A stretch of 64,000 bases of DNA from NCBI GenBank assembly GCA_021525805.1, contig GCA_021525805.1_3940.1; one strand, 5' to 3'. Shown here piece after piece: positions 22,978 to 24,984 of this stretch; the first letter of the stretch is position 1; every line of letters begins with the position of its first letter. Below the pieces are notes generated by a model. That model ran no database searches. It was not told the DNA's origin and saw only the letters and a program-made list of their open reading frames with translations. The position numbers and the translations under genes were made by a program. This DNA is from a phage.

Positions 22978-23087
22978 AATGACCCCAAAGTTATATTAAA
23001 TTTTGTATTACATTGAGTATAAAAATAAGCTATAACACCTGACTTGTCAACAGATTTTATAGCTTATTTGGCAGATTTTTTATAAGG

Positions 23088-23350
23088 CTACTGCCATCCT
23101 TCCATACCTCACCACGCAAGACCAAACCATGCCGTACTCCACTTCACAGGACCAAGCATCACTTAAAAATCCTCTTAGAAAGACTCTTAAGTGATGTAAT
23201 CGAATTTTTATGTAGCTCCGATTAACTACCCATACCTCACCTTACCACGCCGAACAGCACCGGACTATACCAGGCCATGCCGAACATTGCCGAGCCTCAT
23301 TAAAAGACCCTCTTAAAGACCTTTTAAAAAGGAGCCTCCGAGGAGGCTAC
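23088..23350. repeat. Non-coding island A: two units (23088-23196, 23226-23350) of pentamer-tract plus stem-loop
   Basis: Tandem NNACC pentamers on + strand (atacc, tcacc, ttacc, aaacc, atgcc ...), very G-poor; unit 1 ends in palindrome catcacttaa...ttaagtgatg; unit 2 ends in cattaaaagaccctcttaaagaccttttaaaaagg plus GC hairpin. Confidence 0.7.
23322..23350 (-). terminator. Rho-independent terminator (minus strand)
   Basis: On minus strand: hairpin agcctcctcggaggct followed by a T-run, directly after stop of gene 23360-23806. Confidence 0.5.
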
Positions 23351-23359
23351 CTAGCCAAC

Positions 23360-23806
23360 TTAGAAAGGTTTTCTACGTTGCTTGTTAATATTAGCTTTCA
23401 TGGCAGCTAAATGATTTTGCTGTTCAATTAGTCGTGAACGTTCTTGATGGCTAAGTGCCATAGTGTTCACATTCTCAATTGCTTGAGTGGCTTGCTTTAA
23501 AGCTCGACCAATCTTACCAGACATTTTACGTTTTGCAATAGTTGCTTGATGCTTAGGTTCAACCACACGATAACCAACACCCATTGAAGCAACCAGATAA
23601 ATCTTCTCTTCTTTAAGAAGCTTCTCAATAAACTTCTCAAGTCGGTTTAGACGTGTAAGTGCATAAGCCTTCATTTCATCTTCGTACTTAACAATGTCAC
23701 CTTGATAAGTTGGCTTCACAATACCTAAGAAGGTATCCATCTCAGAGTGTGATACAGTGTCACCGTAACTAAACTTTGCTGCTAATGCTTTTGTATTCAT
23801 AATCAA
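23360..23806 (-). CDS. Hypothetical protein (cassette gene 2)
   Basis: 148 aa basic protein; coupled to upstream gene; bracketed by repeat islands. Confidence 0.45.
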
Positions 23807-24405
23807 ACGTTACCTTCTGAAATAACTTCTACAGAAAAACGACCAAAGCGTGGACGCCAATCACCTACACCACAAAGGTTACCAGCATTTTCCAGAACCA
23901 TCAGAAGTTCCTCTCTGGTGATTTGCTCTTCATCGAACATCAAACCGAACTCTACAGACCAGTCACGGAAGATTGGACGGTAGCTCATAACTCGTGCTGT
24001 ACCAATCTTAACAGACTTAGCATAGATAAAATCTGGATTCTTAGCAAGTTCTTGTGGGTTTGCTGGACAGTTCTTGATAGTCATTGGGAAGACTACATCT
24101 GTCAGCATAATGGCTCGGTCAATTACCTTACCAAGTTTGTTGAGTTTTGCACCAGACTTGATACAAGCCTCAATCATCTCACCGTTCATAACAAAACCTA
24201 GCTGCTCATCGTAGTAACAAGAGGTTACCAGTTGACTTTCTGCTAAGAGTGCATAGTCTTCGTCAGTCTTTTTACGTTTACTGGACAGAGACTTGTGATA
24301 TTTTGTCAGAGGGTTTAATGGGTCTGACAACGTATCGTTATGGCTCAAGAAAGGACGAGTACCAGTGATTTTGATATTTAACAGTTTCATAGCATTTAGC
24401 TCCAC
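23803..24405 (-). CDS. Hypothetical protein (cassette gene 1); likely real start ATG at 24390
   Basis: Track start is GTG; ATG at 24390 has GGAG ~9 nt upstream. No recognisable motif. Confidence 0.45.
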
Positions 24406-24484
24406 ACTTTAGTTGATTGTTAAGTTGTTTGTAAAGAACCCTCAACAGAAGACTCTTTAGAAACTTGGTAGATTTTTAACGTGG

Positions 24485-24769
24485 CTACTACCATCCACCC
24501 ATACCATACCGAACCTTACCTTACCAAACCAGACCGCGCCTTACCAAACCAGACCAAACATTACTTTACCCTACCTCATTAAAAAACCCTCTTAAAGACC
24601 TTTTAAAAAGGTAAGTCTCATTTTAATGTAGATGAGACTAACTACCCATACTGTACCGCACCTGACCCGACCTGACCAGACCTAGCATTACCGTGCCACA
24701 CCGTACCGAACAGAACACTACCATACCTCACATCACTTAAAAACCCTCTTAGAAGACTCTTAAGTGATG
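24485..24769. repeat. Non-coding island B: two units (24485-24640, 24641-24769) of pentamer-tract plus stem-loop
   Basis: ~17 tandem NNACC pentamers (atacc atacc gaacc ttacc ttacc aaacc agacc ...); hairpin agtctcat/atgagact; unit 2 ends in same catcacttaa...ttaagtgatg palindrome as island A. Confidence 0.7.
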
Positions 24770-24984
24770 CTGGTGAGTACCCGTTGGTTTATGCTGCTCA
24801 GTATACTCACCAAATTTTCTATGTCAACAACTTTTTATAAAAAAGTTCTGATAGCTATATGTGTCACGAAACAAAAGATTGTAAACAAGACACCCATTGC
24901 AAAAGATGTGTCCAAAAGCTTACTTGCAACGTATGACAATACAAAGACAACCAGTATAAACAGAATGACTGTACTGAACATAGT

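Follow-up and report, generated by a model that had tools for sequence, protein, structure and literature searches.

The stretch of phage DNA analysed here (the window: 64,000 nucleotides from NCBI GenBank assembly GCA_021525805.1, contig GCA_021525805.1_3940.1) contains four tracts of 5-nt repeats, two on either side of a pair of genes. The encoded proteins, the repeats and their targets together leave little doubt that a KhF3-like Felixounavirus here carries a VIPR (Viral Interference Programmable Repeat) system of type II that belongs to the SUSP1 clade. As the VIPR system of the SUSP1 clade has already been described in preprints of 2026, the feature in this window is not novel. The present analysis demonstrates the identity of the protein, the architecture of the repeats, covariation in the tails that follow them, targets that are read with a skip of one base and exceed their controls, the codon phase of these targets, and the absence of self-targets. 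The annotation of the locus is thereby settled: the two "hypothetical" genes are vipr and vap1, and the two "non-coding islands" contain four guide RNAs, designated vrRNAs.

The first of the two genes, vipr, encodes 195 aa (23803-24390, minus strand, as are all features of the locus given below; the open reading frame (ORF) finder placed its start at a GTG at 24405). Its product and the "SUSP1 Vipr protein" of PDB entry 36pp share 97.4% identity (E = 1.5e-127), and a profile of the family has a single match among solved structures, which is again this protein (36pp_D, E = 2e-79). More than 500 homologues exist; the family is unannotated and corresponds to no Pfam domain. An AlphaFold2 model of Vipr scores 96 in the predicted local distance difference test (pLDDT) and in fold comes closest to Csm3/Cas7 subunits, namely Csm3 of type III-A complexes; Vipr is thus a minimal Cas7-like RAMP protein, in agreement with the published description, which places it as a minimal RAMP protein alongside its relatives Cas5, Cas6 and Cas7 (10.64898/2026.04.26.720920, 10.64898/2026.04.26.720927). 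In the SUSP1 complex one Vipr protomer sits on each repeat, with the triplet GGY buried and contacted by H17, D177, R138, W178, R179, E71, M72 and C173 (10.64898/2026.04.26.720927); these eight residues, out of nine published GGY contacts that were checked, are kept in the window protein.

The second gene, vap1 (23360-23800), encodes 146 aa from its ATG, where the ORF finder had chosen a TTG at 23806. In SUSP1 and SUSP2, vipr is immediately followed by a gene with 99.3% identity to vap1, and the homologues of vap1 form only three clusters. The type II vap product is a predicted DNA-binding protein (10.64898/2026.04.26.720920, 10.64898/2026.04.26.720927). A single-sequence model of the window protein (pLDDT 69) predicts the order helix-helix-helix-beta-hairpin, and even its best matches, winged-helix regulators, are weak (E > 0.3), so that a DNA-binding fold is no more than tentative here.

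The link between the repeats and Vipr extends far beyond this genus. Scanning IMG/VR with the exact pattern (GGTNN)5GGT retrieved simple microsatellites and coding repeats and also, from unrelated viral contigs, numerous non-coding arrays that are degenerate and poor in C. These arrays share the strand of the genes, in most cases come immediately behind a stop codon, and are followed by a terminator, a tRNA-like minihelix or the next gene. Two uncultured array-bearing contigs, when compared with cultured phages by blastn, gave array-to-array matches only, or nothing. An all-against-all protein comparison of the ORFs of 49 array-bearing loci revealed only one family common to the Felixounaviruses and 18 unrelated IMG/VR contigs, that of vipr, the first gene of the cassette, and for 31 of the 33 family members of these loci the nearby arrays are on the strand of the vipr gene. 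A scan for degenerate (GGTNN)n arrays combined with a search for co-occurring proteins is therefore sufficient to recover VIPR from sequence.

The window belongs to a Felixounavirus, with positions 24406-24840 being 100% identical to Enterobacteria phage KhF3 and many further relatives at 92-96% identity, and every gene near the arrays is encoded on the minus strand; the locus is located among the genes for DNA ligase, polymerase and primase-helicase. A preliminary description, made from the sequence alone, had reported four tracts of tandem pentamers unmatched elsewhere in the window, and a scan of the whole window for CC (plus strand) or GG (minus strand) dinucleotides clustered with a period of 5 nt indeed found the four claimed places only. 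The same scan of the whole KhF3 genome yielded the same locus and, in addition, one marginal window with four hits at 44620-44687. The autocorrelation of G at a lag of 5 nt is 0.54-0.79 across the tracts (z = 4.3-7.1), and for every tract none of 500 dinucleotide-preserving shuffles equalled the observed value, which answers the periodicity check that had been proposed. As the arrays are confined to the locus and their autocorrelation lies beyond all shuffles, the observation is real. The reported scarcity of G on the plus strand holds as well, the minus strand of the tracts containing 5-12 C versus 23-35 G, and so does the arrangement of two palindrome types in the order I-II, cassette, II-I on the plus strand. 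The tract length had been given as 65-90 nt and has to be corrected to 55, 65, 75 and 85 nt.

A vrRNA has been defined as 9-16 repeats of the form YNNGG plus a 3' tail that does not vary and that, in the SUSP1 clade, forms a pseudoknot (10.64898/2026.04.26.720920, 10.64898/2026.04.26.720927). In the gene-sense orientation the four tracts of the window are exact runs of such units (GGY/NN), with 17 units in vrRNA-a (24646-24730; periodicity z = 5.9), 15 in vrRNA-b (24499-24573; z = 7.1), 13 in vrRNA-c (23230-23294) and 11 in vrRNA-d (23102-23156). The first base is a pyrimidine in 56 of 56 units. The same rule holds throughout the clade, in which the distance from the preceding palindrome (the head) to the tail is an exact multiple of 5 nt in 58 of 58 unique tracts of 9-17 units; the fixed positions are G in 85%, G in 99% and T or C in 100%, and the two N positions are near-uniform in composition.

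Each tract is followed by a tail with two interleaved stems, which are GTAG/CTAC and AGTCTCA/TGAGACT in the H-type pseudoknot of vrRNA-a (24610-24645), GTGG/CCAC and GGTAG/CTACC in vrRNA-b (24467-24498), GTAG/CTAC and AATCGGA/TTCGATT in vrRNA-c (23196-23229), and AAGG/CCTT and GGCAG/CTGCC in vrRNA-d (23059-23101). Among the internal tails (the classes of a and c), 14 variants have 100% of the alignment cells paired, compared to 23-36% in slid controls; three pairs are changed on both sides, and the column pair 14/29 occurs as C-G, G-C, G.U and A-U. In the terminal tails (AAGG/CCTT or GTGG/CCAC with GGCAG/CTGCC or GGTAG/CTACC), 96% of the cells are paired and four of nine pairs show compensatory changes, and over both tail sets the slid controls reach 23-50%. 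Covariation thus extends across the tail classes: both stems of the vrRNA-d tail are compensated relative to the tail that precedes vipr, that of vrRNA-b, which is in turn identical in sequence to the tail of SUSP1 vrRNA1 (SUSP1 locus L015). With seven pairs in all that change on both sides, the 3' tails are predicted to fold as pseudoknots, and the published cryo-electron microscopy structure resolves the terminal 3' pseudoknot of the SUSP1 RNA (10.64898/2026.04.26.720927). No Rfam 15 family matched the window or ten other array-bearing loci at the gathering score, and ARAGORN found no tRNA or tmRNA in the window or in the other array-bearing loci scanned.

The covariation search in relatives, which had been suggested at the outset, therefore turned out positively for the tails; for the type I palindrome no covariation is claimed, because changes in its outer stem are uncompensated. 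The description of the units also has to be altered. The conserved palindrome is real, and it had been thought to follow the tract; on the functional minus strand it precedes the tract, and the pseudoknot tail follows. The earlier units had attached each tract to the wrong neighbour and had cut through the tails, so that their boundaries were shifted. The GC-rich terminator hairpin that had been assigned to the ends of both type II units (23326-23349) adjoins one type II element only, and the hairpin beside the other element is the tail of the preceding RNA. The proposal of a structured, G/U-rich family of non-coding RNAs encoded on the minus strand was essentially right, the tracts being guide RNAs with structured 3' tails.

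A further line of evidence is provided by the letters at the N positions. In SUSP1, double-stranded DNA is read through pairing with the NN dinucleotides, one base being left out per repeat and no protospacer-adjacent motif (PAM) being required (10.64898/2026.04.26.720920, 10.64898/2026.04.26.720927). A satellite phage is targeted by 18 of the 20 SUSP1-clade guides with identifiable targets, and its baseplate hub is 72% identical to that of the helper (10.64898/2026.04.26.720920, 10.64898/2026.04.26.720927). The corresponding satellites were located via the baseplate gene of the window (9394-10200), of which the first ~460 nt (9394-9853) have ~90% DNA identity to a chromosomal "phage baseplate protein" in 474 of 5,426 complete E. 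coli genomes, a similarity that suggests recent gene exchange between helper and satellite. Five elements (L136-L140; 59 kb, the L136 element spanning 4900-16250) formed the satellite set; they are ~11 kb long, carry tape-measure, baseplate and serine-recombinase genes, and occupy different integration sites. Guides were scored against this set, and 1.53 Mb of other sequence served as background.

With a skip of one base, three of the four guides have targets in the satellites. Guide a (GA AT AG TC TC AC GT AC AA TA CT CA CG CA GC AC (AT)) matches at 29 of 32 letters in a 185-aa satellite gene (L136 8533-8579, plus strand); guide c (TC AA TC AT CT AT CC GC TC GT AA (GA AT)) at 22 of 24, the first 11 dinucleotides being perfect, in a 107-aa gene (L140 8765-8799, minus strand); and guide d (TT CC GA GG AC AT TT CT GT GA (AT)) at 20 of 20, in codon phase, in the serine-recombinase (integrase) gene (L136 15960-15988, minus strand). 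The background maxima are 21, 19 and 15 letters for a, c and d, and the numbers of sites expected by chance are 9e-10, 1e-6 and 1e-7, respectively. Neither shuffling the order of the NN letters nor skipping 0, 2 or 3 bases gave scores near those observed for the window guides, and in all three targets the skipped base is the third (wobble) position of the codon. In guide a, four units have TG or AG in place of GG, and the match of 29 of 32 holds at those units too. The two small genes targeted by guides a and c have no function in PHROGs. The satellite genes that the three guides should silence, the integrase of the satellite included, can thus be named.

The same rule applies to the whole clade: of 58 unique guides read with a one-base skip, 37 have matches of at least 80% and 20 of at least 90%, all 37 being inside the satellite, and with skips of 0, 2 or 3 bases none of the 58 reaches 90%. 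No site in the window itself exceeds 69% for its own guides. One satellite carries a vrRNA of its own (L138 5102-5215, minus strand), complete with a sigma-70-type promoter, a GC terminator and a compensated tail (GTCG/CGAC); as none of the five satellites encodes vipr, this RNA presumably borrows the Vipr of the helper.

VIPR has been characterized as an RNA-guided DNA-silencing system related to CRISPR, in which binding represses transcription and vap1 enhances the effect; in SUSP1 the vrRNAs are expressed at a length of ~100 nt and co-purify with Vipr (10.64898/2026.04.26.720920, 10.64898/2026.04.26.720927). By analogy with SUSP1, whose Vipr is 97% identical, the expression of the RNAs, the formation of the ribonucleoprotein and its filament, silencing and enhancement by vap1 would all apply to the present phage. 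Transcription of the minus strand would yield four vrRNAs, two from upstream and two from downstream of the vipr-vap1 operon, each consisting of consecutive YNNGG units with a pseudoknot at its 3' end. Vipr would polymerize along the vrRNA with one protomer per unit, burying GGY and exposing NN, and the exposed letters would pair with double-stranded DNA, skipping every third base, so that binding would block transcription. The natural targets would be genes of an integrated satellite that steals the tail and baseplate genes of this phage, from which it would follow that the phage uses VIPR to silence its parasite; such silencing would be expected to benefit the phage. VIPR is among the most unusual RNA-guided systems described, given that the information resides in two of five guide bases and that codon wobble positions are skipped in double-stranded DNA.

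It should be noted that several observations weigh against this interpretation. The first G of the unit is degenerate (TG or AG, not GG) in 13 of 56 units, vrRNA-a with its 17 units is one above the published range, and position 175 of Vipr is V, as in the deposited SUSP1 chain, where the paper has T175. For guide b, the best score in the five satellites is 20 of 28 letters, no better than its background of 21, and a scan of IMG/VR for an exact core of 22 letters gave no match. Shuffled NN orders of short guides often reach the threshold of 80%, and for this reason weight is put only on matches of at least 90% and on the comparison of skip rules. Furthermore, the evidence for expression and binding of the RNAs comes from SUSP1, and the support in the literature consists of two preprints of one group.

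Three other explanations have to be weighed against a VIPR system. The tracts could act as DNA, either as a cluster of primase sites or as an R-loop origin at which the G-rich displaced strand loads the T7-type primase-helicase; primase start sites or an origin had been raised in the preliminary description. A strong promoter directly upstream, a G-rich and C-poor non-template strand and the location among the genes for DNA ligase, polymerase and primase-helicase would suit such a role, as would the GGTC motifs in the tracts, of which there are 0-4 per tract; yet a T7-type site needs GTC ((G/T)GGTC) on the template strand, and C is the rarest base after GGT (15-20%). It also fits poorly that relatives carry one to five units or differently placed ones, that the arrays track one protein family, co-occurring with vipr in unrelated phages with other replication systems, that the variable dinucleotides encode matches to foreign genes under one spacing rule only, and that the repeats are bound as RNA in the solved structure, all of which makes a role as DNA in replication extremely improbable. 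The arrays might instead be GT-rich, register-tolerant recombination linkers that delimit a mobile cassette, like the promoter-stem-loop cassettes of T4-type phages, with any RNA being incidental. Indeed, about half of the Ounavirinae genomes have the cassette, which forms an indel when compared with Felix O1; a comparison of genomes with and without it, also suggested at the outset, places the junctions in head and tail elements common to both, genomes that are nearly identical elsewhere show a mosaic of tract alleles, and the direct repeats of head I could mediate deletion. But linkers would leave unexplained the invariant GGY with free NN, the strict bias for the gene-sense strand, the pseudoknot covariation that includes G.U pairs, and the target matches, and we regard them as highly unlikely; recombination at the repeats, by which guides are shuffled, is likely a by-product and not their function. 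The earlier suggestion of protein-binding arrays that belong to the cassette thus survives in part: the binding is at the level of RNA, by the cassette's own Vipr, and serves sequence-specific DNA recognition, and the supposed purpose in packaging or recombination falls away.

The RNAs might also be sponges or decoys whose GGU triplets titrate an oligomeric RNA-binding protein of the host, like the trp leader and TRAP or CsrB and CsrA. Triplets separated by two free bases would suit a protein that forms a ring or filament, and orphan arrays in phages without vipr would be understandable; but the binder is identified and encoded in the cassette, the NN letters are not free, as they match satellite genes in codon phase, and the pattern is explained without a host partner. 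A sponge function is accordingly exceedingly improbable next to RNA-guided silencing by Vipr. Various further candidates had been dropped before the link to the protein emerged: sponges of the CsrA, Hfq or TRAP type, arrays of Shine-Dalgarno-like sites, consensus pause sites, G-quadruplex arrays, BREX GGTAAG decoys, and R-loop origin and primase arrays. As genes and promoters lie on the minus strand, Rho utilization sites on the plus strand were discarded. The literature on non-coding RNAs of Felixounavirus and on Felix O1 transcriptomes contained nothing found to bear on the arrays.

Along the minus strand, the locus begins after the DNA ligase gene with promoter P1, a leader hairpin, head I, tract a with its tail, head II, and tract b with its tail; these are followed by the two genes, a GC-rich terminator, head II, tract c with its tail, head I, and tract d with its tail, and finally by a terminator-like hairpin with an embedded promoter and the next gene. 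P1 (24800-24827, directly after the DNA ligase gene) is of the sigma-70 type, TTGACA-16-TATACT, with 11 of 12 consensus positions; it is kept in all relatives, those without the cassette included, and is an annotated promoter in AYO145A. It would drive the upstream guide array and vipr-vap1. The intrinsic terminator after vap1 is a GC hairpin with a T run (23326-23349, stem 23333-23348). The terminator-like hairpin at the end (AAGCTATAA...TTATAGCTT plus a T run, 23016-23065) includes the -35 hexamer of P2, the promoter of the next gene (TTGACA-17-TATTTT, 23050..23022), which is annotated as such in AYO145A and ASO1A.

Type I or type II heads precede every tract and are not part of the ~100-nt mature RNA. 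The type I head of vrRNA-a (GCATCACTTAAGAGTC-loop-GGGTTTTTAAGTGATG, 24731-24770) lies between the promoter leader and guide a, and that of vrRNA-d is at 23157-23197; among relatives there are 17 sequence variants, and the stem needs G.U pairs on the minus-sense strand. Downstream of P1, this element looks more like a processing hairpin. The type II head of vrRNA-b (TTAAAAGGTC-loop-GGGTTTTTTAA, 24574-24609), of which variants exist in relatives, contains TTAAAA-17-TTTAAT, as a promoter would, and transcription from it would start at the first repeat; variants with TTTAAC weaken this possibility. The second type II head, that of vrRNA-c, is at 23295-23330. The conserved head motif was considered as a general promoter of the phage and rejected, because the window contains only one exact copy (24744-24761) and one with three mismatches (27486-27503). 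A degenerate fifth copy, read from the sequence and followed by GGTTCTTTACAAAC, occupies part of the vipr 5' untranslated region (24427-24466), shortly before the first cassette gene, and this stretch is invariant in relatives. The boxA antitermination element is GCTCTTTAACAA, which GGTTCTTTACAAAC resembles; boxA/boxC antitermination was nevertheless dropped as a reading of the arrays.

The island occurs in ~231 phage records and vipr in ~118. About half of the Ounavirinae genomes, Felix O1 and ASO1A among them, are without both genes and have one or two units, bounded by an unchanged promoter and terminal tail; genomes with both genes have three to five units in varied layouts, and tracts at the same position can be wholly different between genomes with near-identical flanks. 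Units in phages without vipr and vap1 are found in Felix O1 (L003 2323-2604), ASO1A (L005 2338-2765) and BPS15S6 (L142 32430-32849), which likewise is without the cassette. In BPS15S6, tblastn and a profile search revealed no homologue of vipr in the entire 87.6-kb genome, and two guides are well formed, one of which agrees in 19 of 20 letters with a site in a methyltransferase gene of a satellite (L137 5596-5624). In the KhF3 record (KT184315.1; L018/L019), vipr and vap1 are unannotated, and arrays with the same spacing are present at both ends (94-339 and 87571-87836), as if the overlap in a circularly permuted assembly had been left untrimmed.

Elsewhere, some arrangements differ from that of the window. 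In an uncultured phage group with 63-69-kb genomes, each tract is followed by a tRNA-like minihelix of acceptor stem and T arm (GGTTCGATTCC or GGTTCGACTCC; L028 822-880, L085 4895-4950 and 5039-5100), which ARAGORN does not call as tRNA and which differs from the hammerhead-interspersed arrays of the preprint. In several unrelated, uncultured IMG/VR phages (L112, L114, L125), vipr adjoins a gene for a RecA/Sak4-like ATPase and an ORF with a CPICE cysteine motif, and vrRNA tracts on both sides of vipr start at most 20 nt from stop codons. Long arrays of ~65-nt blocks that each end in GGCAG, with no hairpin between them (L131 2944-3300, L134 2075-2330, L049 (-) 4907-5130), may be the "staggered arrays" of the preprint; GGCAG is present in the terminal tails of Felixounaviruses, too.

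Additions beyond the 2026 preprints are limited to three leads, namely the orphan guides, the head elements and the tRNA-like punctuation, none of which appears in the preprint text consulted, which has no biogenesis section and leaves the head palindromes unexplained (10.64898/2026.04.26.720920, 10.64898/2026.04.26.720927). It is conceivable, if rather doubtful for the three proposals taken jointly, that orphan guides load onto the Vipr of a co-infecting phage, that the heads are promoter or processing signals for the 5' end of the guide, and that the minihelix directs maturation by RNase P or RNase Z.

The closest known system is the VIPR of SUSP1 (PDB 36pp), with which the present locus shares both proteins (97.4% identity for Vipr and 99.3% for vap1), the position between the DNA ligase and ORF87 homologues, heads, tails and promoters, YNNGG repeats with 3' pseudoknots, and targets in the same kind of satellite, found via a homologue of the baseplate hub. 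The layout of two upstream and two downstream guides is that of SUSP2, whereas SUSP1 has one upstream and three downstream. The guide sequences differ from those of SUSP1, and here one guide has 17 units and guide b is without an identified target. Class 1 CRISPR-Cas systems, in which Cas7 or Csm3 binds the crRNA, resemble VIPR in the RAMP fold, in having one protomer per fixed step of RNA, and in a periodically unpaired position in the guide-target duplex. However, the step is 5 nt with two reading letters here versus 6 nt with five, the specificity letters are interleaved with protein-binding letters, the system is phage-borne, and its published target is double-stranded DNA without a PAM. 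The repeats of the locus are 5-nt units and not the 25-40-nt repeats with spacers of a CRISPR array, and a scan of six neighbouring genes against PHROGs and Pfam revealed no Cas family, the cas1/cas2 adaptation module included, the RAMP fold alone being shared. A reading by periodic triplets is also known from TRAP on the Bacillus trp leader, an oligomer that reads ~11 GAG/UAG triplets in a row with two to three free bases between them; unlike VIPR, TRAP is a closed ring for attenuation with a different fold, and its spacer bases carry no information. In its biological setting, the locus is reminiscent of phage ICP1, which directs a complete type I-F CRISPR-Cas system, capable of acquisition and of nuclease cleavage, at PLE, a satellite in Vibrio cholerae. 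In both cases a lytic helper phage has an RNA-guided system with guides aimed at a chromosomal satellite that exploits the helper, and in contrast to ICP1 the phage described here would achieve this with a two-gene silencing system without known acquisition machinery.

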